UHGV virus genome: UHGV-0218987
Origin: a virus
Length of the DNA: 30,308 nt
Reading direction: 5' to 3' (one strand)
The notes under the pieces are model-generated. The model saw nothing but the letters and a program-made list of their open reading frames with translations, searched no databases and was not told the DNA's origin. Below, in pieces: positions 1,734 to 11,474 of this stretch. A program made the position numbers and the translations under genes. Position 1 is the first letter of the stretch. Each line of letters opens with the position of its first letter.

Positions 1734-2359
1734 ACCGCCAGCACCTTACTGGCAGTTATGTATCGCGCACGCCGGTCGTCGATGCCGTTCCGGCCACCAT
1801 TGATAATCAGAGTTACACGTGCAATATCACCGGTATACTTCATGCAGCCTTTGCTGGCAAAAAACCACGCCGCACTACGAGCCGCATATTCATCCTGCGC
1901 CAGCAGTTCAGGACTCTCCAGCAGGTCAACTTTCAGACCGTTTCCACAGTCACGATAGTTATTCAAACCGGTAATCTGGATAAGCCCGCGCCCACGGTAA
2001 TTCCAGCCATCACCAGGGGCATTGTTACCCATGCGTTTGCTGTACACCAAATTTGCGATCGCTCTCTGGCGCTCAAGTGGCAATGGTGGTTCACCAGCAC
2101 GGCGCCCCAATGCGTTGGCCTGCCCCTGAGTGAGACGCCCAGCCAGAACGAAGTTAGCCAGTCCGGTGACGCTGTAGTTGAAGTTCTCCTGCAGCCGGGT
2201 GAAGCCTCCAGACTCATGCCCGACCTGAGCAATAAACATTGCCTGATCTTCTGGTTTGCTGATACCAAACTCTTTCATCGCAGAAGTTATATGCGAGAAC
2301 CAGCGTGCGGCCAGCGCCTCGCTAATACCAGCAGCTCGCTGGAATTGTTTAATCTCCAT
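1730..2359 (-). CDS. Endolysin, glycoside hydrolase family 19 (chitinase-like lysozyme)
   Basis: GH19-type motifs ([29 protein letters not shown]); GAGGT RBS before the ATG; sits between a membrane protein gene and Rz. Confidence 0.85.
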
Positions 2360-2657
2360 GTTTAGACCTCGTTATTTTGAAAATCTGAACGACGTTACCG
2401 CGAGTTTTAAGAACCGCAGCAAGCATGACAGCATTGATAATGACCTCAGATAAATCCACAGCCATTGGCGTGCGTAACCAGATTGCATAGACGACACGAA
2501 CAGGAATACTGGCCGCAGCAACAATAAGGAAATAAGCAAGCCACCCTCCCCACCTTCGATGTTGTGAACCGTTACGCCGGAATGTGACAACACGAATTGC
2601 TATGCCAGTACAAATAAGTGCATTGGTGATAAGCAAAACAAGCTCATTAGTTACCAT
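2349..2657 (-). CDS. Lysis-associated small membrane protein (second holin or antiholin-like), about 3 TM segments
   Basis: Three hydrophobic segments; start overlaps the holin stop and stop overlaps the endolysin RBS, indicating translational coupling inside the lysis cassette. Confidence 0.6.
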
Positions 2658-3048
2658 CGCCTTTTCTCCCCGGAATTAACTCGCGTGGATTATCGGAACG
2701 GTGATAGAGCCAGATGCCAATTCGAACTGCAACGATTGCTGACACGAATGCACCAGCAGAGAAAACAATCCCTTTCTCGAAAGAGTCCTGCGTGATGGTA
2801 GGGATCAGGCTGGCTACGCCGATAAGGATGGATGCAGTTGGTTTGTAGAAGAGAAGGCCGCAGAGAAAGCTGAGCATCGACAGGAGAACCCGGCGGCGGA
2901 TCGGGTATTCGACAGCCGAGGTAACAAAGATTACCGCGCCTGCCAAAGACCCCAACGCCACTTCTGGCGGGACACCAGCGATTACCGCAGCGAGCGAACC
3001 CATACTAAGCCACTGATTTAAAGACTCACTTGTTAGCCCGGCTGACAT
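2647..3048 (-). CDS. Holin-like membrane protein (first gene of lysis cassette)
   Basis: Multiple TM segments in a protein of about 133 aa directly upstream of the endolysin; start taken as the ATG at 3048 (GGTGG RBS) rather than the GTG at 3057. Confidence 0.65.
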   Translation of the reverse strand: MSAGLTSESLNQWLSMGSLAAVIAGVPPEVALGSLAGAVIFVTSAVEYPIRRRVLLSMLSFLCGLLFYKPTASILIGVASLIPTITQDSFEKGIVFSAGAFVSAIVAVRIGIWLYHRSDNPRELIPGRKGDGN

Positions 3049-3110
3049 AATGACCACCGTTTACTGTGCATAAAGAACCTCCTTAGTTGGTTCTCATATC
3101 ATACACAATA

Positions 3111-3137
3111 AACCATATGTGTTTTAATTTGGTAACA
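3111..3137 (-). promoter_or_regulatory. Copy (i) of conserved regulatory cassette (GTTACCAAATTAAAACACATATGG) upstream of the lysis cassette
   Basis: The minus-strand read TTGTTACCAAATTAAAACACATATGGTT is homologous to the cassettes at 5987-6010 and 24999-25022; it contains a TGT-N12-ACA arrangement and lies about 60 nt upstream of the holin start, just after the tailspike terminator. Confidence 0.45.
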
Positions 3138-3180
3138 AATGAAAAAGCCCTTTAGTGAAAAACATTCATTAAAGGGCTAG
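3135..3180 (-). terminator. Rho-independent terminator after the tailspike gene
   Basis: Stem AGCCCTTTA / TAAAGGGCT followed on the minus strand by a T-run (TTTTTCATTTG). Confidence 0.6.
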
Positions 3181-3188
3181 ATATTTAC

Positions 3189-5933
3189 TTAACCTTTAGA
3201 AAAAACAGACAGTAACGGAAGTGTAAAAGTCGACACACCAGTATTCATCATGCAGGTTTTACCACCTGAGTATCCAGATATGGTTTGCGAAACTGGACTT
3301 CCTGTTGTTGGGAAAATGGTGATTTCATCCCCCCCCTTCAATACTCTAACTTTGCCTGTAACATCAACCGATGAACTTGAAACAGACGTGAGAGATCCGT
3401 TGGTCATTGTATAAAAGTTTATAGTTCCTGTTGCTGTTCTGCTTACACCACATCCTGATTTTTGCTTCTGTTTATAGTTAAACAATACCAGCAGGCCAAC
3501 AGGCATTGACTCAAGCTCAACTGCTGTAGACTGGTAGGTCTTACTGCCGTTTCTCATGTCAGGAGCCTCATCATCTGGATCAGAAAAATTATACCCAAGA
3601 GTTAAATCATTAACCGTGGCATTATTCCCTGTTATTCCTTTGACTTGATTAACACTTAACGGTATGTAATTAAACCCTGCAAAAAGCGGTGTTAACTTTT
3701 CTCTAAATAAAAGGCCTGGTGGGTATACTAACGAAGGTGTACCATCATATGTCACTGAGATAATATTAAGTCCCTTTTTAAGGGTTCCAATGCACGTTGT
3801 TTGTTTGCCTGTAAATGATGTTAGCCCATTGCTGGCAACTTTACCTGATAGATAAGAAGAGTTCCTGATGTCATTGAGAATGACATTGAACTGGTTAACA
3901 CGATCTGATGAAGTATAAGTTGGGTTATATGGCTCAAATAATGTTACAGAGATATCGCTTGTATCACTCCATACAAAATACCGACAAATAACATTTTCAT
4001 TTGAAGGCGTAATCCTTCCCCATCCACCAAGTGCATCAAGATAATCACCTCCACTTAATATCGAAATTGATGGGTAGTATCTGGTATTTGAAGGGTATCC
4101 AATACCAATAAATGAAAGTTGAGTAGTAGGGATTAGGTTCTTATTTTTTACAGCTGTATAAACGCGCTCTTTTAATACCTCTTTTGCAGCATAAGCACCG
4201 ATGTATGCATGTCCTATCGTTGATGGATGGCTCTGGTCAAAGACAGTACCGCCGTCACGTTTGGCAACATCAGATATAGAGTACGCGCCTATATCTGCAT
4301 AAGCGTCAGTCGTGGCAATGGACAAATCCAAAAACTCGACCTTTGGGAAAAGGCGTTCGATACGCTTCTTAATGGCTGACTCCAGGAAAGCCTTTGGCGC
4401 ATCGTTATTGTTTACAGTAACAAAGCATATCGGACAACCATATCCCCATGATTTTCTAATCAACTTTTCAAACTCATGAAAATACGCTTCAAATCCTATT
4501 GTTGGAAGTATTCCATTGTCATTAAAACCAAGGCTTATAAAAAGAACATCAGGAGCTTTTTTTCCATACGCAGCATTCTGGAAAAATCCATAGTCGAAGT
4601 TTTCATAACCCCAACCTGTCGCAAGTGACTTGCCAGACGATCCGCAGTTATATGCTTTAAAAATATTATCCGTGCTGTCGGATAGCATATTGAGGCAATC
4701 AGTAAAAATTCTGAACCATGAATGCTTACCGCCATTTAAATTATGATTGTAGTTGGTAGAGTTAAGATTTCCATCGCTACCAGTCGGGTTCGGGGTCCAT
4801 CCTGAACTATAGGCTCCATCCGTTATAGAATCACCAATGATACCTACATGGCAATCTTCTATAGTTGATTGGTAACTCTGCTTATTTGCAAATTTAGCAA
4901 TTGTTCCAAGAGCAGTAAAATCAGGGCCATTGTTAGATAGCCCAACATCAAAAACATGCTCATTACCCCATTTGTCTCTTGTGAGAATTTTACCTTCTCC
5001 AAGAAATTTAGTCACATCATCTGACGGTAAAAAATTACACCTGATGGTTACATCTTTTGGGATGTAAATCTGACCAGGGAAAGCATAAATTGCACTTCTG
5101 TTGTCAGTTGTCGTGTTAATAACGACATTTGGAACATAAAATATTGACGTTGCGTCAGTTCTATATTGTCCGTTAACAAGCTCAGATCTGAGAACCGCAT
5201 CCCCAACACCTCTCCAAGCGCCAGGACCAACACCACCAGTAGTGGTAGGAGTTGATCCTGGAGGAACTACTTTGGGCAGTGGCCCGTCCCATCTGTAGTA
5301 TTCGCCGTTGCTTTCCCAGAGAAGAACATCGTTAAGATAGATGATGGTATTACCCAACTCAAAAGATTTCTTCGTGTTATAGCCATACAATCCATTTTCT
5401 AAGGTTTCAATAATGGTGCTAAGTATGGTACTAAATTTTGCATAAAGATCATCAGTATATTTTTTTGTAGCAGCATCTTGGGGAAGAGATGGATCACGAA
5501 GATTTCTAATATAATTTGAAAGCGCGTCATAAAAAATTGCTACGTCATTTGGCTTTCTTAAAGCCAACTTATCATTTCTTAATGATTGTTGAATGAGCAT
5601 AGTAAGTTTATCAAACGCATCCTCATGTACCTCAGCGAAGAACTTACCCTGATTACGTAAATCCGTTTCCTGAGTAGCTGGTAGTTCTCGTGATATAGAT
5701 ATCTGATGACCGTTAGCCAACGCCTTCGAGAGAATTACATTACCGCCGTTATATCCTCCAGCCCCGGTAACTGTGTAATCAGTATCAAGAGCCAGCACAG
5801 CGATATTTTCGTCAAGGTCAACCACCTGTACTACCAGATCAGATTTATTGAAAACCCTAAAGGTGTACGGAAATGATGTCGTAACGCCGTTACCTGTGTA
5901 TTCGTTGTGGTCAACTTCGGTTGAGACCGTCAT
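3189..5933 (-). CDS. Tailspike / tail fibre with SGNH (GDSL) esterase domain
   Basis: 914-aa ORF with GGAGA RBS. N-terminal YTGNGVTTSFPYTF virion-attachment-like motif; central blocks GIIGDSITDG (GDSxxDG), ISLGFNDNG (GxND) and DQSHPS that together match SGNH hydrolase blocks I/III/V. Gene is visibly more AT-rich than its neighbours. Confidence 0.75.
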   Translation of the reverse strand: MTVSTEVDHNEYTGNGVTTSFPYTFRVFNKSDLVVQVVDLDENIAVLALDTDYTVTGAGGYNGGNVILSKALANGHQISISRELPATQETDLRNQGKFFAEVHEDAFDKLTMLIQQSLRNDKLALRKPNDVAIFYDALSNYIRNLRDPSLPQDAATKKYTDDLYAKFSTILSTIIETLENGLYGYNTKKSFELGNTIIYLNDVLLWESNGEYYRWDGPLPKVVPPGSTPTTTGGVGPGAWRGVGDAVLRSELVNGQYRTDATSIFYVPNVVINTTTDNRSAIYAFPGQIYIPKDVTIRCNFLPSDDVTKFLGEGKILTRDKWGNEHVFDVGLSNNGPDFTALGTIAKFANKQSYQSTIEDCHVGIIGDSITDGAYSSGWTPNPTGSDGNLNSTNYNHNLNGGKHSWFRIFTDCLNMLSDSTDNIFKAYNCGSSGKSLATGWGYENFDYGFFQNAAYGKKAPDVLFISLGFNDNGILPTIGFEAYFHEFEKLIRKSWGYGCPICFVTVNNNDAPKAFLESAIKKRIERLFPKVEFLDLSIATTDAYADIGAYSISDVAKRDGGTVFDQSHPSTIGHAYIGAYAAKEVLKERVYTAVKNKNLIPTTQLSFIGIGYPSNTRYYPSISILSGGDYLDALGGWGRITPSNENVICRYFVWSDTSDISVTLFEPYNPTYTSSDRVNQFNVILNDIRNSSYLSGKVASNGLTSFTGKQTTCIGTLKKGLNIISVTYDGTPSLVYPPGLLFREKLTPLFAGFNYIPLSVNQVKGITGNNATVNDLTLGYNFSDPDDEAPDMRNGSKTYQSTAVELESMPVGLLVLFNYKQKQKSGCGVSRTATGTINFYTMTNGSLTSVSSSSVDVTGKVRVLKGGDEITIFPTTGSPVSQTISGYSGGKTCMMNTGVSTFTLPLLSVFSKG

Positions 5934-5986: not shown

Positions 5987-6010
5987 ATTACCTAAAAAAC
6001 CACATATGGA
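5987..6010 (+). promoter_or_regulatory. Copy (ii) of conserved regulatory cassette (ATTACCTAAAAAACCACATATGGA)
   Basis: Homologous to the cassettes at 3111-3137 (minus) and 24999-25022; located in the divergent intergenic region between the tailspike and the 6129 gene. Confidence 0.45.
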
Positions 6011-6128: not shown

Positions 6129-6386
6129 ATGCAGCAGTATCACTATCCACTGGAAGACGGATTTACCGAAAGGATTCACACGCCGGGAGGCGTCAGGTCA
6201 CTGGTGGAGGGATCGCACTTGATGAAATTACTCCGGGATCTCGATAAGGATGGATTTAATGTCGATGGCCCACTTGCCGAACTGACTGCACTGATTAACT
6301 ACGTCACCAGCTCACAGATGTCTATGCGGGATCTGCAAACACATCTCGACTATTGTGCCGAACAATTACGAAAACAAACCAGATAA
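6129..6386 (+). CDS. Small SOS-regulated protein, paralog of the C-terminal domain of the Bro-N antirepressor-like protein (candidate antirepressor or modulator)
   Basis: ATG at 6129 with GGAGA RBS (the listed ORF start at 6063 lies upstream of the LexA box and is unlikely). The product aligns with the C-terminus of the 6702..7412 protein (…GV…L-E-S-LM-LL…DG…V-G…AELT…RD-QTH…Y). Confidence 0.6.
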   Translation: MQQYHYPLEDGFTERIHTPGGVRSLVEGSHLMKLLRDLDKDGFNVDGPLAELTALINYVTSSQMSMRDLQTHLDYCAEQLRKQTR

Positions 6387-6400
6387 GATTTGAAATTACC

Positions 6401-6452
6401 AAGAGGAGTGCTTATATTTACCTTTGCGGTAAATTTACATCGCACTCCTCTT
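6401..6452 (+). other. Large nested hairpin (AAGAGGAGTGC … GCACTCCTCTT) enclosing inverted repeat ATTTACC-N5-GGTAAAT
   Basis: 11-bp perfect outer stem with a roughly 30-nt loop that itself contains a TTACC/GGTAA-family inverted repeat (6416-6434); followed by a second hairpin GGCACTGG-CAAAAT-CCAGTGCC at 6468-6489. Confidence 0.5.
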
Positions 6453-6522
6453 GTGCCATAGTAATCGGGCACTGGCAAAATCCAGTGCCGGGATTGGCGT
6501 CCCGAGTTACTAAGTGGCGCAT

Positions 6523-6545
6523 ACCACGCCAGACGTGGTTTTTTT
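6523..6545 (+). terminator. Rho-independent terminator (or attenuator) downstream of the 6129 gene
   Basis: Stem ACCACG / CGTGGT with loop CCAGA followed by seven T. Confidence 0.6.
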
Positions 6546-6701
6546 ATGCGTTAAGCACAGCCATATCCGAATTATGGTGGGCTGGGCAGGGGTCCGAAAG
6601 GACGCCGGTACCACTTAGGCCGGTACGCCAACCTTGTCCAGTTCACCACCAGTAATTGGCGTTGCGGTGGTGATTAAAATCACTAAGTGGAGATAACCAC
6701 C

Positions 6702-7412
6702 ATGGCTAATGCTCAAACTGCCATCTTCAAATTTGAATCTGTTAACCCTATCCGTTCCATCATTATCGATGGCCAACCATGGTTTGTAGCCCAAGACGTT
6801 TGTAGTGCGCTGCGTATCCAAAACGTCACCCAAGCACTTGAAAAACTGGATGATGATGAAAGGTCTATGTTCAACATAGGGCATGAACATCGTGCAATTT
6901 TTGACAGCCGAGTAAAAGAGATCAACATCATCTCCGAGTCAGGCCTCTACACACTGATCCTCCGCTGCCGCGATGCGGTGACACCAGGCACTATCCCCTA
7001 CCGCTTTCGTAAATGGGTTACAGGTGAGGTTCTTCCTCAGATCCGCCGCACCGGAAGTTACATTAAAAACTCGCTCCCGCAGGAAGAACGCATAAAGATG
7101 GTTGCCGACCAGGTAGCCAACGCCACAGCATCAGCAGTGATGCAGGCAATGAAGATAGAGAACAAAACCTACAGTGCCCCACTGAAGCCCGGCTACCGCA
7201 GTCTGATTCATTCTCCGTCTGGTGTTCTCGGCCTGACGGAGAACTCACTGCTGATGAATTTGCTGAACCAGTTGCAGGAAGACGGGCACGATGTATCGGG
7301 CGCGGCGGCGGAGCTGACCACCATGTTTTGCTACATCGTTGGTGTGAGCAAATGCCTGCGTGATATCCAGACTCACGCGGAGTACATCAACGACAAGGCT
7401 GGGTTCTTCTGA
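6702..7412 (+). CDS. Bro-N / KilA-N-type antirepressor-like protein
   Basis: N-terminal Bro-N signature (FKFESVNPIRSIIIDGQPWFVAQDVCSALRIQN … YRFRKWVTGEVLPQIRRTGSY). Start at ATG 6702 with GGAGA RBS (the listed ORF starts at 6687). C-terminal about 70 aa paralogous to the 6129..6386 product. Confidence 0.75.
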   Translation: MANAQTAIFKFESVNPIRSIIIDGQPWFVAQDVCSALRIQNVTQALEKLDDDERSMFNIGHEHRAIFDSRVKEINIISESGLYTLILRCRDAVTPGTIPYRFRKWVTGEVLPQIRRTGSYIKNSLPQEERIKMVADQVANATASAVMQAMKIENKTYSAPLKPGYRSLIHSPSGVLGLTENSLLMNLLNQLQEDGHDVSGAAAELTTMFCYIVGVSKCLRDIQTHAEYINDKAGFF

Positions 7413-7456
7413 CGGGCGGCGGCACAGGGATGTGCCTTTAAATAATTCTGTACAGA

Positions 7457-7499
7457 TTGCAGACTGTGGGTGAATAGCGTACTATTACCTCAAGGGTAA
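7457..7499 (+). promoter_or_regulatory. Sigma70-like promoter (TTGCAG-N17-TACTAT) overlapped by inverted repeat TTACCT-CAA-GGGTAA
   Basis: -35 at 7457-7462 and -10 at 7480-7485 with a 17-nt spacer; the inverted repeat at 7485-7499 (5 of 6 arm positions complementary) overlaps the -10 and +1 region, suggesting repressor control. Confidence 0.5.
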
Positions 7500-7559
7500 A
7501 CGGATTGGTTTCATTTTTATTAATCCGTGTAATGAACTTATGAGATATGAGGTAATGTC

Positions 7560-7739
7560 ATGCGAAACGAAAAATTGCAGATGCGTAGAGCGCAAGCTGC
7601 CGCAAGACGTTCTTTCAATGGAAGCGTAGAGTACGTAAAAGTTACTATGACAAAAGATCACGCAAGTCGCGTATCCCGAGCTTTCTTTGATTCTCGTAAC
7701 AATAAGGAAAATTATGAGTTCGTCTGCGTCGCAGAATGA
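7560..7739 (+). CDS. Small basic ORF (59 aa) overlapping the start of the downstream gene; candidate antitoxin or regulator
   Basis: ATG at 7560 with GAGGT RBS 6 nt upstream; ends at TGA 7737-7739, overlapping the 7714 start by 26 nt in another frame. Below the 60-aa cutoff of the supplied ORF track. No homology claimed. Confidence 0.35.
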   Translation: MRNEKLQMRRAQAAARRSFNGSVEYVKVTMTKDHASRVSRAFFDSRNNKENYEFVCVAE

Positions 7740-8259
7740 TAAAAATCAAATTGTCAGATATAAGGGTCGAGTATTGCATACGCAAAATTTCTCGGCCCTT
7801 TGTGCATCTGATCTTGAGCTGAAGAAAGTATCTGATGCCTTTACCCAGTATTGGAAAACGGGATACCATCCATCTCTTGGTAAAGATGCTGCATTTGCTC
7901 GTCCGACAGAAATGCTTAAACTAAATGTCAGGCATACTCATGTCGATAACCAAGACTATATTCCAGAAGATAGTGATAAAAAACACACTGGTAAAAAATC
8001 ATCTTGGGATGCATGGAAAAATATAGCGTCTGTGCAAGTAAAATGCATACCAACAAGTGATTGCTTTTTAGTTTATTCGGTAAATCACAATCGTGATGCG
8101 CTGGTTATGTTTTTTGTTGACGCAGATGCCCACAACATAACTGAGCAAGAAGAGTTTAAAGAGGAAGCAATCACTATCAGTTATCAATTCTTTGAGAAAA
8201 CAAAAACAGAACCAATGCCTTTAGAAGAAGATCTTTTTTCTGATAAATGGAAGGAATAA
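7714..8259 (+). CDS. AT-rich cargo protein, candidate YafO-like toxin (ribosome-dependent mRNA interferase family)
   Basis: ATG at 7714 with AAGGAA RBS (the listed ORF starts at a TTG at 7687). Motif pattern GKDAAFA … KLNVRHTHV … CFLVYSV … ALVMFFVDADAH resembles, from memory, conserved YafO blocks (GRDA…, RVAHIHL, LVY, AWLLIAIL-PEPH). Followed by a strong terminator. Confidence 0.5.
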   Translation: MSSSASQNDKNQIVRYKGRVLHTQNFSALCASDLELKKVSDAFTQYWKTGYHPSLGKDAAFARPTEMLKLNVRHTHVDNQDYIPEDSDKKHTGKKSSWDAWKNIASVQVKCIPTSDCFLVYSVNHNRDALVMFFVDADAHNITEQEEFKEEAITISYQFFEKTKTEPMPLEEDLFSDKWKE

Positions 8260-8281
8260 GCCCGCGTTGCGGGCTTTTTTG
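8259..8281 (+). terminator. Rho-independent terminator after the 7714..8259 gene
   Basis: GC-rich stem GCCCGC / GCGGGC followed by six T. Confidence 0.7.
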
Positions 8282-8317
8282 TGTCTGCGGATTCCCGCCC
8301 GGGCGGCGGTGGCATTC

Positions 8318-8345
8318 GTTAAAAACAAGGCCGCGAAAGCGGCCT
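8318..8345 (-). terminator. Rho-independent terminator after the 8359..8919 gene (convergent with the 8259-8281 terminator)
   Basis: Stem GGCCGC-GAAA-GCGGCC followed on the minus strand by CTTGTTTTTAACG. Confidence 0.6.
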
Positions 8346-8357
8346 GTGACATGTCAC
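8346..8357. repeat. 12-bp perfect palindrome GTGACATGTCAC (copy 1 of 3)
   Basis: Exact palindrome immediately 3' of the 8359..8919 stop codon; identical copies at 26035-26046 and 28486-28497. Confidence 0.8.
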
Positions 8358-8358
8358 G

Positions 8359-8919
8359 CTACATTGATATATGATTCATAAAGTAGCTTAAAGATTTACT
8401 TCCCAGAAAAGAAATTTCTTTTCCTGGATATGTCGCAATAATTGAGCATGACTTATCCCCGTTAGAGGTAACAAATCCTGAATAACCTACTTGTTCTTTA
8501 CCATTTTGTTGCTTGGCTAAAAAGTAGAGGTAGCTTATCTTTTTGCCCTCTGGGTAAAACTCTGCCAAACCAGTATCGGTGATTGAATATTTTATTCTCC
8601 CGCCTTGAGTAACGTTTTCCATCTCAAGTTTAGCTATGTCTTTTCTGTTGTATTCAGCATTGATTTTCCTTTCGAAATCAATGTTGTTTTCAAATGAGTA
8701 GGAAGCAACAGTCTGAATAGATGGGAACACGTTTATCTGGATGCCTCCACAGTCGGCACAGGTATAAAGGTATGAATCAGATGGAATCCCCATAAAAGAA
8801 AACTGAGTTACCTTAAATTTATCGTTATCTCCAAAGTATTGAAGTTCGCATTTAACATTTTGCCCTGCAAAAGAAAATGCAGACATCAATATTGAAACAA
8901 AAAATATAATTGCCTTCAT
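8359..8919 (-). CDS. Secreted (signal-peptide) protein of unknown function; AT-rich cargo gene appended to the late operon
   Basis: Signal-peptide-like N-terminus MKAIIFFVSILMSAFSFA; start overlaps the stop of the 850-aa gene (TAATG); visibly AT-rich; followed by a terminator. Confidence 0.7.
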   Translation of the reverse strand: MKAIIFFVSILMSAFSFAGQNVKCELQYFGDNDKFKVTQFSFMGIPSDSYLYTCADCGGIQINVFPSIQTVASYSFENNIDFERKINAEYNRKDIAKLEMENVTQGGRIKYSITDTGLAEFYPEGKKISYLYFLAKQQNGKEQVGYSGFVTSNGDKSCSIIATYPGKEISFLGSKSLSYFMNHISM

Positions 8920-8921
8920 TA

Positions 8922-11474
8922 TTATTTACCTAGCATGAACTGCGATGGTGGGATCAGAAAGTCGTTACCCTGCTCACGCTCAACACGGCGCTGATAACGC
9001 TCAAGAGAGCCTGGGTCAAGGGCATCTTGTATCCGGTTCAATATTAAACCATTCATCGCCGTACGAAGCCAGAACACGTTGAGGAATGGCGTATTGTCAA
9101 GTGCCGTGCGATACCAGTCACCCAAATCTGCATCCCCTCTCGTGGTCTGCTGGAGCAGCGTGATAATGCTGTCAGCGTTCGATGCTGCTGGCCCCATTAG
9201 CGACGTAACCGGCCCGGCCCCCATGCGGTTGACCTCGCCAAACATGAAGTCACCCAAGATGCCAAGACCGCCCCCCTGAGATGCGGCTGCGAGAAACGTC
9301 TTGGCATCTGCCGGGCGTGGTGTTTGCCCTTTCAGCATGAGTTTTGACTGCATGGAGATATAACCAAACATAGTCGCCCAGACAAAGAGGTTTGCAGCAC
9401 CAAGGAAAGCCCCCTTCCCGTTACGTAGCAGCGCATTCGTCAGCGATCCGGTTTTCGACTCACCAAGCCCAGCAGGAATATAACCACGCCCGAATACTTC
9501 GCGTCCTAGTACGTTCTGCATGAAGCTTGCAGTGAACGATTTGTACTGACCAGCGAATCGTATTGCTTCCCCAGCCACCGTTCCTGGCACCGTGCCCATC
9601 TTCATAAACGCCTGCGTGCGATCGCCAGGCTCTGACATGGCGATATTCAGGCGGTCAAGGATGTAGCCGCGCAACTGCCCTTCCAATTGATCGCGTGCGT
9701 CAGCGATAGCGCGCTGCGTTGGTTTGATCCCCTTACTCTCTACATAACCGGCAATCACTTCGTCAGGCACGCCGCGGATGCCGCTGGTCGTCATGAACTT
9801 ACGACCTTCGCTATCGGCCATGTCCATGTTGCGAAAAATTTCCCACTCACGTTCGCCAATACCGTGCAGATCCAGCACGCGTCGCAGGTCTTCCGGTAGC
9901 CGCGCATGAGACTGGTCAGCATTCTTTGCAAGCCAGTTGGTTATCATCATGGCGTTGCTGTTGCGACCGCTCTCGGTCCAGAAGTTCATGAGGTTGTACT
10001 TAAAGAAAAGCTGCTGCGCGCGACCAAGCTTTCCATTCAGCGTGTCATCACCAGATATGCGCCGGATGATTTCCTGCGTCATGGAGTCGGAATAAACTCC
10101 GATAGAGGAAAGGATCTCTTTCTGCTCCGCGCTGTTGTAACGCGTGAAGCGGCCTCTCATAGCACCAAGCAACGCCTGCATAAAATTCTGCCCTTGGTAG
10201 CGCATCTCGGTAGCGGCGATAGGCACGTCGTTAAACGATGAGATTACCGCACCACCAAGTTGGCTCATACGCAACCAGCCGCGTACAGCCGCCGACGCAT
10301 TGGCCCAGCCTACGCTGCCAGGAATATTTAGCGAGCCGTCAACCTGCGGCATTACGGTACGGTTAATGCGACGCACCTTCGTCATGTAGTCAGCCAACGC
10401 TGCCGGTCTTCCGGATTTGCTGATATCTTCAGCAATGGCGTCCGTCAGGTACTTAAACATGTTCTGTGGGTTAGTGCCCAGTACGCGCATCATGCCCGTT
10501 GTGCGGGCAGCGCTGTTTAAGCCACCAAACAGCGCTTCTCGCAGGCTGCCGGTGCCGAATTGCTGGTTGTACTCGTGCCACGAGATACCATCTTTGAAGT
10601 GCAAAATTCGCTCTTGGCTGGCGCGTTTAGCTGCGTTCGCCGATCCCTTAAAGCCATTCATCCAATCGGGCTTTTCAGATGTAAGATGCACGCCGGAAGC
10701 CAGCCCGTTATAAATGTTACGCATGAACTGCTCGCGGTCAGCCACGCCGTCAAAAGTGCGCTCATCAAGGCGCGGGAGAATAGCATTTCGCCATGCTTCA
10801 TAACCTGCGGCGCGGATCTTCATGATGTCGTGTGACTGGCGAACTATATAGCCCGGCTCTTTGCGTATCCATGCCCCGGCGCGGTTCTCATCAATGCGCG
10901 CAGTTTCCTGCCATTTCATGATGATTTGTGCAGCGCTTACGGATTGCTTTGTCATACCGTCAGTTGACTGCCCGCGCCCTATGCGCCACATTGCATCGGC
11001 AATTTCCCGGTCATTGCTGCCGCTGGCGATGAATTGCACCAGTCCGGCACGGTCAAAATCGTAGTTGATACCGGAATGATACTTGCCGCGCAGTTGCGCC
11101 ACCTCCGAAGATACCGACCGGCGGGCGCCGGTACGCGCATCGTTGCGGCCAACCAGCATTGCTTCAAGCCCGATATCCGGGCGGTCTTTCCAGATAGTAC
11201 GAAGCTCTCTAAGTCGTTGTGCGGCAATACGGGCGTTGATTGCCTTATTGCGAGCCTCAATCTGTTTTGCCAGCATATCGGCATTGCTCAGTTCTTCCGC
11301 TGCGCGCATCGCGGCCTCTTCCAGAGACAGCGCCTCATTGGTCGCCAGAATTCGCCTAGTGGTGTCGTTCATGTCACGCACCAGCGACTCCATCTCATCG
11401 GAAGAAAGCTCGCGACCAGCGGCAGCATTTACACTGCGCTCGCACTGCGTCAAAAATTCGTTTGCTGCCATCAC
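8922..11474 (-). CDS. Large internal virion / DNA-ejection protein (850 aa)
   Basis: Long ORF in a run of three large, translationally coupled genes downstream of the tail tubular genes; assignment by position and size (podovirus internal-core analogue), not by a recognised motif. Confidence 0.55.
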   Translation of the reverse strand: MMAANEFLTQCERSVNAAAGRELSSDEMESLVRDMNDTTRRILATNEALSLEEAAMRAAEELSNADMLAKQIEARNKAINARIAAQRLRELRTIWKDRPDIGLEAMLVGRNDARTGARRSVSSEVAQLRGKYHSGINYDFDRAGLVQFIASGSNDREIADAMWRIGRGQSTDGMTKQSVSAAQIIMKWQETARIDENRAGAWIRKEPGYIVRQSHDIMKIRAAGYEAWRNAILPRLDERTFDGVADREQFMRNIYNGLASGVHLTSEKPDWMNGFKGSANAAKRASQERILHFKDGISWHEYNQQFGTGSLREALFGGLNSAARTTGMMRVLGTNPQNMFKYLTDAIAEDISKSGRPAALADYMTKVRRINRTVMPQVDGSLNIPGSVGWANASAAVRGWLRMSQLGGAVISSFNDVPIAATEMRYQGQNFMQALLGAMRGRFTRYNSAEQKEILSSIGVYSDSMTQEIIRRISGDDTLNGKLGRAQQLFFKYNLMNFWTESGRNSNAMMITNWLAKNADQSHARLPEDLRRVLDLHGIGEREWEIFRNMDMADSEGRKFMTTSGIRGVPDEVIAGYVESKGIKPTQRAIADARDQLEGQLRGYILDRLNIAMSEPGDRTQAFMKMGTVPGTVAGEAIRFAGQYKSFTASFMQNVLGREVFGRGYIPAGLGESKTGSLTNALLRNGKGAFLGAANLFVWATMFGYISMQSKLMLKGQTPRPADAKTFLAAASQGGGLGILGDFMFGEVNRMGAGPVTSLMGPAASNADSIITLLQQTTRGDADLGDWYRTALDNTPFLNVFWLRTAMNGLILNRIQDALDPGSLERYQRRVEREQGNDFLIPPSQFMLGK

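Follow-up and report, generated by a model that had tools for sequence, protein, structure and literature searches.

The tailspike gene and its phage context

The DNA analysed here, referred to throughout as the window, is the 30,308-nucleotide virus genome UHGV-0218987, and the subject of this study is its tailspike gene. The gene is a single open reading frame (ORF) of 914 amino acids (aa) at 3189..5933 on the minus strand, with an ATG start in the ORF list. These are exactly the coordinates at which a first-pass annotation, made from the sequence without database searches, had placed a tailspike with an SGNH/GDSL esterase domain. In PHROGs the protein matches phrog_21878 (E = 1e-169), many of the matching families cover aa 1-165 only, and no further spike was found in the window.

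Between positions 6000 and 30308 the window is about 97% identical, over 55-62% of the length, to named Escherichia phages (TL-2011b, HEMP4, phiV10, PAS61, phiv142-3, ZX5 and the O157 typing phages 9 and 10). Those relatives with a genus on record (PAS61, phiV10, phiv142-3 and ZX5) are members of Uetakevirus, the ε15-like temperate podoviruses, and by sequence the spike belongs to an ε15/phiV10-like Uetakevirus prophage of E. coli. The gene order runs from virion structural genes through the spike to holin, endolysin and spanin, with a Phage_holin_8 gene (2647-3057), a second holin, a GH19 endolysin and a spanin lying downstream of the spike. The identical spike protein is encoded on 11 public contigs, whose named sources are all E. 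coli assemblies (GCA_001283825.1, GCA_012854535.2 and GCA_052516065.1 carry the exact gene), and relatives of its N-terminal anchor are encoded on 440 IMG/VR stretches. At NCBI a 97% identical protein is named 'tail fiber/spike domain-containing protein', and entries related to the spike already carry the label 'SGNH/GDSL hydrolase family protein'. Family, fold and mode of action are already published, and the protein is present in public databases under a generic name.

The gene and the domains of its product are as follows:

3189..5933, minus strand: tailspike gene, from the ORF list, with matches to PHROGs tail fiber/tail spike families
5439..5933, minus strand (aa 1-165): N-terminal tail-attachment (anchor) domain of the ε15/phiV10 type, the part conserved with relatives
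5199..5381, minus strand (aa 185-245): Tail_spike_N (TSP1/gp66-type) domain, Pfam PF18668, E = 5e-18
4944..5135, minus strand (aa 267-330): G7C gp63.1 'domain 3' (Gp63_3rd_G7C), Pfam PF21562, E = 2e-31
4134..4853, minus strand (aa ~361-600): predicted SGNH/GDSL esterase domain, from the alignment to 4QNL, fold matches and sub-threshold Pfam GDSL matches
3705..4103, minus strand (aa 611-743): galactose-binding-domain-like β-sandwich, Pfam PF21988 (G7C_GBD), E = 1.6e-8
3192..3698, minus strand (aa 746-914): C-terminal all-β domain, predicted local distance difference test (pLDDT) ~90, without sequence similarity to gp63.1

Within the anchor, the first 128 residues match a podovirus tailspike N-terminus (PDB 28lx/8ck1, E = 2e-25). 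The three Pfam domains follow in the order PF18668, PF21562 and PF21988, all above their cut-offs and with the SGNH domain in between. In an AlphaFold model aa 611-743 are all-β with high pLDDT, and the fold of aa 746-914 suggests that this domain is probably a second carbohydrate-binding module (CBM). Local Foldseek matches of these C-terminal β-sandwiches are to CBM66 and galectin folds.

A central domain of the SGNH family related to G7C gp63.1

Among solved structures the best sequence match of the spike was 4QNL, the gp63.1 protein of phage G7C, over aa 190-744 (phmmer E = 5.9e-104). BLASTP gave 37% identity between the two proteins, and in our own alignment, which is the basis for equating the two residues, Ser369 was aligned to Ser276 of gp63.1; the S276A mutant of gp63.1 is said to be inactive. 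The three blocks resembling SGNH signatures that had been noticed in the first-pass annotation were all present, and a further block could be placed between them:

4815..4835, minus strand (aa 367-373): SGNH block I, GDSITDG, with Ser369 as predicted nucleophile
4632..4649, minus strand (aa 429-434): putative SGNH block II, NCGSSG, with Gly434 as predicted oxyanion-hole glycine
4518..4529, minus strand (aa 469-472): SGNH block III, GFND, with Asn471 as predicted oxyanion-hole residue
4224..4238, minus strand (aa 566-570): SGNH block V, DQSHP, with Asp566 and His569 completing the predicted triad

The NCGSSG motif would be block II by the general SGNH pattern. Conservation was assessed in an alignment of 35 homologues that are 31-97% identical to the query. 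Residues G367, D368, S369, G373, N429, G469, N471, D472 and H569 were invariant, and G434 and D566 were conserved in at least 90% of the sequences. Since the three motifs first noticed are in register with the SGNH blocks of gp63.1 and conserved in this alignment, chance matches are excluded. As far as the residues tell, the full SGNH signature of Ser, Gly, Asn and His is present, together with the triad Asp.

The AlphaFold model, built on the same alignment, reached a mean pLDDT of 81 and a predicted template modelling score of 0.69. It was confident from aa 185 to the C-terminus and of low confidence only in a helical stretch at aa 85-182; the low-pLDDT helices at aa 92-180 would fit a trimeric coiled-coil neck that was modelled as a monomer. 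Across aa 361-600 strands and helices alternate in the model, consistent with the α/β/α flavodoxin-like SGNH fold. In a Foldseek search against the PDB the top match was again 4qnl (E = 1.2e-66, template modelling scores 0.64/0.69, 798 columns). Further matches were to the free-standing SGNH esterases 2w9x, 2vpt, 4rsh, 9otv, 4h08 and 3dt6, with 2w9x being a carbohydrate esterase and 2vpt a family 3 carbohydrate esterase. Domain search and structure prediction, named as checks when the domain was first proposed, thus recovered both the predicted fold and the residues of a Ser-Asp-His triad.

A β-helix depolymerase tailspike was considered as an alternative identity and rejected, as a right-handed parallel β-helix catalytic domain was found by neither Pfam nor fold search. 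Neither did Pfam and Foldseek detect a Pect-lyase or other depolymerase domain in the spike. The β-helix spikes returned by Foldseek aligned over the N-terminal spike domains only, and other spikes with the same anchor do yield β-helix/Pect-lyase matches in Pfam.

These results also bear on a bifunctional spike, in which the esterase would be combined with glycan backbone cleavage by a C-terminal domain, a pairing that has been proposed for the ε15 spike. A 2026 preprint on the ε15 spike (bioRxiv 10.64898/2026.07.31.742079) indicates that a Uetakevirus spike can combine both, and the function given here to aa 746-914 is a putative one, drawn from its fold. However, no β-helix, lyase or glycosidase family was found in the spike by Pfam, the fold of aa 600-914 resembles CBM/galectin-type β-sandwiches in Foldseek, and the overall architecture matches that of gp63.1, which is reported in passages of PMC10743462 to spare the backbone. 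We regard a second, backbone-cleaving activity as very improbable.

Taken together, homology, predicted fold and catalytic residues agree and no depolymerase domain was detected, in keeping with the esterase originally proposed. The data support the assignment of the central domain to the SGNH family, next to G7C gp63.1.

Proposed mode of action and receptor

From sequence, structural model and analogy, the spike is probably, and with good confidence, an SGNH esterase tailspike of the gp63.1 type that sits on an ε15/phiV10-type anchor and would deacetylate a surface polysaccharide without cutting its backbone. The N-terminal 165 residues would attach the spike, presumably a trimer, to the tail. 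They would be followed by the helical neck, the TSP1/gp66-type domain, gp63.1 'domain 3', the SGNH esterase and the two β-sandwiches that probably bind carbohydrate. Catalysis would be carried out by Ser369, Asp566 and His569, with Gly434 and Asn471 providing the oxyanion hole. By analogy with gp63.1, the β-sandwich domains would bind an O-acetylated surface polysaccharide, most likely O-antigen, and the enzyme would hydrolyse its O-acetyl esters and leave the backbone uncut; binding and deacetylation may then commit the virion to infection. From this analogy we infer that the spike is a trimer and catalytically active, what its substrate is and how it acts in adsorption.

The analogy draws on passages of PMC10743462 and PMC6393563, which cite Prokhorov et al. 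2017. According to these, gp63.1 strips the E. coli 4s O-antigen of its lateral O-acetyl groups with the backbone left intact, deacetylation is essential for infection, and mutants without O-acetylation are resistant. Deacetylating spikes or fibres have also been described in Pectobacterium phages (PMC9569702), and in Klebsiella prophages SGNH receptor-binding proteins are common and are active esterases (PMC13123978).

Several observations weigh against this interpretation. The generic Pfam models Lipase_GDSL and Lipase_GDSL_2 match aa 364-579 below their gathering scores (24.6 versus 32.9 and 21.3 versus 23.6 bits), the SGNH domain of the spike having long insertions relative to these models. 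The structural model is of a monomer, and within the phage collection any homologue with enzymatic or adsorption data is at most 51% identical. The target could be capsule or another glycan instead of O-antigen, and the two C-terminal domains bear at most a distant resemblance to those of gp63.1. Because the generic models remain below threshold, SGNH membership is argued from the gp63.1 match, the residue conservation and the fold; and because the C-terminal domains differ, the specificity of gp63.1 is not transferable to this spike.

The sub-threshold Pfam scores, together with the predicted status of the activity, would be compatible with a catalytically dead SGNH module that recognises an acetylated sugar without hydrolysing it. 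Against this, the four SGNH signature residues and the triad Asp are kept even where homologues are down to 31-40% identity, as would be expected if catalysis were under selection, and the homologous gp63.1 is reported, in part of PMC10743462, to need its activity for infection. A dead module consequently seems highly unlikely.

Somewhat less improbable, though still unlikely, is that the spike is an active esterase whose receptor is not O-antigen but capsular K antigen, colanic acid, enterobacterial common antigen or another acetylated glycan. In Klebsiella prophages there is an association between SGNH receptor-binding proteins and capsule types (PMC13123978), the receptor-binding β-sandwiches diverge from those of gp63.1 as noted above, and the substrate is a prediction by analogy. 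On the other hand, the phiV10 and PAS61 spikes as well as gp63.1 are reported to be O-antigen specific (PMC10408124, PMC11522302, PMC10743462), and in relatives the same position is taken by O-antigen acetyltransferase, Wzy-like or glycosyltransferase genes. We therefore continue to favour O-antigen as the likely substrate of the predicted esterase.

Compared with known systems, the spike is closest to G7C gp63.1, with which it shares the same domain series and catalytic motifs, the 37% identity (over aa 190-743) and the best structural match. G7C, however, is a virulent N4-like phage whose gp63.1 hangs on a second fibre, gp66 (PMC6393563), whereas here the module stands behind the ε15/phiV10-type anchor of a temperate podovirus, and the last 170 residues of the spike have no sequence similarity to gp63.1. 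The proteins of the N4-like Pectobacterium phages CB1, CB3, CB4 and Nepra are 33% identical over 95% of the query (aa 172-914). Possum gp66, PP99 (Pectobacterium) and Klebsiella prophage proteins are likewise SGNH receptor-binding proteins with reported deacetylase or esterase activity, some of them from temperate phages (PMC9569702, PMC13123978), but they differ in host, anchor and substrate.

The spike genes of phiV10, TL-2011b and PAS61 stand at the same place on the same phage backbone (about 97%) as the present one, and their N-terminal anchors are homologous to its own; over roughly the first 480 nucleotides, nucleotide identity is 79-84% with PAS61 and TL-2011b. Their receptor-binding parts, in contrast, are unrelated and are followed by an O-antigen acetyltransferase gene. 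The ε15 tailspike gp20, from the type phage of the same group, also has a homologous anchor. The ε15 spike is described as having a protruding esterase domain as well as a section shaped like a barrel that has several O-antigen binding sites (bioRxiv 10.64898/2026.07.31.742079). The ε15-type spike nevertheless differs in its 1070 aa, its β-helix barrel and the Wzy-like polymerase gene that follows it; it gave no Pfam GDSL match, and its architecture is unrelated to that of gp63.1.

As an E. coli prophage case, the spike joins a growing body of evidence that host recognition by temperate phages often works through deacetylation of polysaccharide rather than through cutting it. It predicts an O-acetylation-dependent host range, which may escape typing by serotype or O-locus alone, and it constitutes a ready-made module for engineering or for typing reagents.

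Exchange of the receptor-binding part

In blastn comparisons with PAS61 and TL-2011b, homology on the lysis side stopped at 3121-3124 and resumed inside the spike gene at 5437-5451 (aa ~161-166). These breaks indicate that the receptor-binding part has been exchanged as a cassette, which contains the receptor-binding two-thirds of the spike and a terminator but no O-antigen-modification gene:

3125..5436, minus strand: exchanged cassette, without nucleotide homology to PAS61 or TL-2011b
3141..3178, minus strand: terminator-like hairpin (3146-3178) with a T-run behind it, directly past the stop codon and within the cassette

The hairpin was calculated by RNA folding at -16.5 kcal/mol (z = -4.55), with none of 200 shuffles as stable. 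It had been missed by an automatic terminator scan because of its long loop, and was spotted by eye before the folding confirmed it. By this account the cassette, from about aa 166 to the terminator, would have taken the place of both the depolymerase-type end of the spike and the O-antigen acetyltransferase gene of the closest relatives.

Megablast against known phages and 500 complete E. coli genomes matched only the first ~350-490 nucleotides of the spike gene; in this anchor portion nucleotide identity to the spike 5′ ends of PAS61, TL-2011b, VB_ST_E15 and the 500 E. coli genomes was 79-92%. The remaining ~2,250 nucleotides of the gene gave no megablast match, and blastn returned only short 70% patches. 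A nucleotide search of 50,697 phage records found no match covering more than 10% of the receptor-binding part, and in 5,426 complete E. coli genomes no place covered 80% of the spike gene.

At the protein level the spike was found to share segments with several others. Two spikes (P0071 and P0011) match it at 100% identity in each 30-aa bin between aa 61 and 240, and the similarity breaks off sharply beyond about aa 245 (near window position 5199), directly past a conserved GVGDA motif; beyond this point P0071 continues as an unrelated GDSL esterase. The alignments suggest that aa ~245, the end of the Tail_spike_N domain, is a recurrent recombination junction. Conversely, three spikes with a P22-type head-binding N-terminus (PF09008; P0010, P0009 and P0014) and one with a further kind of N-terminus (P0006) are 80-100% identical to the spike from about aa 300 to the end, and an Enterobacter protein (P0004) with yet another N-terminus is similar to it from about aa 183. 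The first three carry a Lederbergvirus (P22-like) N-terminus in front of the same esterase module, which indicates that the module has moved between phage genera. Since it is found behind P22-type and other N-termini, the aligned sequences place the esterase module in circulation among at least four kinds of virion anchor, with junctions near aa 165, 245 and 300. These boundaries mark where modules are exchangeable between Uetakevirus, P22-like and other phages. The apparently swapped receptor-binding part of the first-pass annotation is thereby borne out, both by the breakpoints and by the sharing of the module behind other N-termini.

O-antigen conversion genes between spike and holin

In PAS61 and TL-2011b an O-antigen acetylase/O-acetyltransferase gene lies between spike and holin. 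The corresponding gap of the window (3058-3188) is 131 nucleotides long and holds only the terminator hairpin, as compared with L002 1924-3780 and L003 4207-5313 in relatives. It has no ORF of at least 23 aa, and no polytopic membrane ORF of at least 150 aa was present anywhere in the window.

The gap was then surveyed across 80 IMG/VR loci with the same anchor. Complete spikes and a recognisable holin were present in 68 of these, which represent 44 spike types: 7 esterase types, defined by GDSL/SGNH domains or motifs, and 37 others. A gene of at least 200 aa occupied the gap in 1/7 esterase types as against 26/37 other types (Fisher's exact p = 0.009), a difference to be read with the small sample, the at least one exception, and the possibility that cryptic esterase domains, such as that of ε15, escape Pfam. 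No gap gene was present in 6/7 esterase types and 11/37 others. The window's own type (L018) and five more (L020, L049, L059, L081 and L084) have gaps of 89-188 nucleotides without a gene, and separate look-ups found the gap of P0071 and P0011 equally free of genes, in agreement with the pattern of the esterase types.

Acyl_transf_3 accounted for 13 of the 20 gap-gene clusters, covering 21 of the 26 non-esterase types with a gene, and some of these acyltransferases are fused to an SGNH domain. Other occupants of the slot were a Wzy_C polymerase behind the 1070-aa ε15-like spike (L086 10258-11454), a GT2 glycosyltransferase with a membrane partner (L055 9101-11577), a DUF6056 membrane protein (L072 9588-11225), a SASA-type esterase ORF behind a β-helix spike (L024 9386-10765) and a 281-aa ORF without family assignment (L040).

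A strict rule by which an esterase spike would always lack an acetyltransferase was rejected. It is broken by L056, whose spike (2348-4597) has GDS, GTND and DPVH motifs and a weak Pfam GDSL match, and whose 3.5-kb spike-holin gap contains an Acyl_transf_3 gene (6131-7078).

The absence of a gap gene fits a phage whose receptor contains acetyl groups and for which an acetyltransferase would be useless as a means of exclusion. More broadly, the receptor-binding part and the O-antigen conversion gene may travel as one cassette with matched logic, depolymerase types bringing a receptor-spoiling acetyltransferase, polymerase or glycosyltransferase and esterase types bringing none; we put this forward tentatively and hold it to be rather doubtful. 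In the classical description, conversion by ε15 does away with O-acetylation, and this would be in line with such a logic. If matched cassettes exist, esterase-spiked relatives could specifically infect O-acetylated strains, including lysogens that a sibling prophage 'protects' with its acetyltransferase, and the esterase spike would be a counter-move to acetylation-based superinfection exclusion. That the acetyltransferase gene is missing suggests joint selection of spike chemistry and lysogenic conversion, an idea that extends others already in the literature (PMC13123978). Of all these findings, only the way in which spike chemistry co-varies with the conversion gene might reward more work.

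One further arrangement was noted in the same slot. Behind a SASA-like spike (P0107) in L015, and overlapping it by one base, lies a soluble 336-aa ORF (7022-8032) with no Pfam family, which could be a spike partner or a chaperone.

Base composition

The AT-rich character ascribed to the gene in the first-pass annotation, against a GC-richer structural module, was evident from the guanine-plus-cytosine (GC) content, which is 40.0% in the spike gene, 52.1% in the window from 8922 to 30308 and 49.9% in the whole window. Low GC spans the entire gene, the conserved anchor (aa 1-165) being 40.6% GC. Across the 44 IMG/VR spike types with the same anchor, mean GC was 42.1% for the receptor-binding part (range 35-49%), 45.1% for the anchor and 52.6% for the lysis genes, and in 44/44 types the receptor-binding part lay below the lysis-gene mean.

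Because low GC was found in all 44 types and extends to the conserved anchor, it is a property of the gene class and not the mark of one event, and composition was ruled out as proof of recent acquisition. Of the earlier argument from AT-richness to horizontal acquisition, then, both the low GC and the acquisition itself hold, the latter through the breakpoints, but composition is weak evidence for it. Low GC fits a long history of exchange; it is the breakpoints that document the swap here.

Other features of the phage

Where assemblies encode the identical spike, a MASE1-EAL gene, ppx and ppk border the prophage on its lysis-gene side (L004 16828-22722), a junction that points to the integration region.

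Three further genes of the window were noted. Two of them, on the strand opposite to the structural genes, lie between tail genes and spike: a gene for a Bro-N domain protein (6687-7412, plus strand), whose TL-2011b counterpart is annotated as Bro-N domain-containing protein, and a gene for a YafO-toxin-like protein (7687-8259, plus strand; Pfam E = 9e-6). A 186-aa ORF at 8359-8919 on the minus strand has an N-terminal signal-like hydrophobic segment and no Pfam match. It sits in an AT-rich stretch of ~38-40% GC (window 7501-9000), homology to TL-2011b stops at 8361, and the ORF looks like a moron gene.

Finally, the megablast matches of window 6000-30308 include 64 records named 'Synechococcus' phage.

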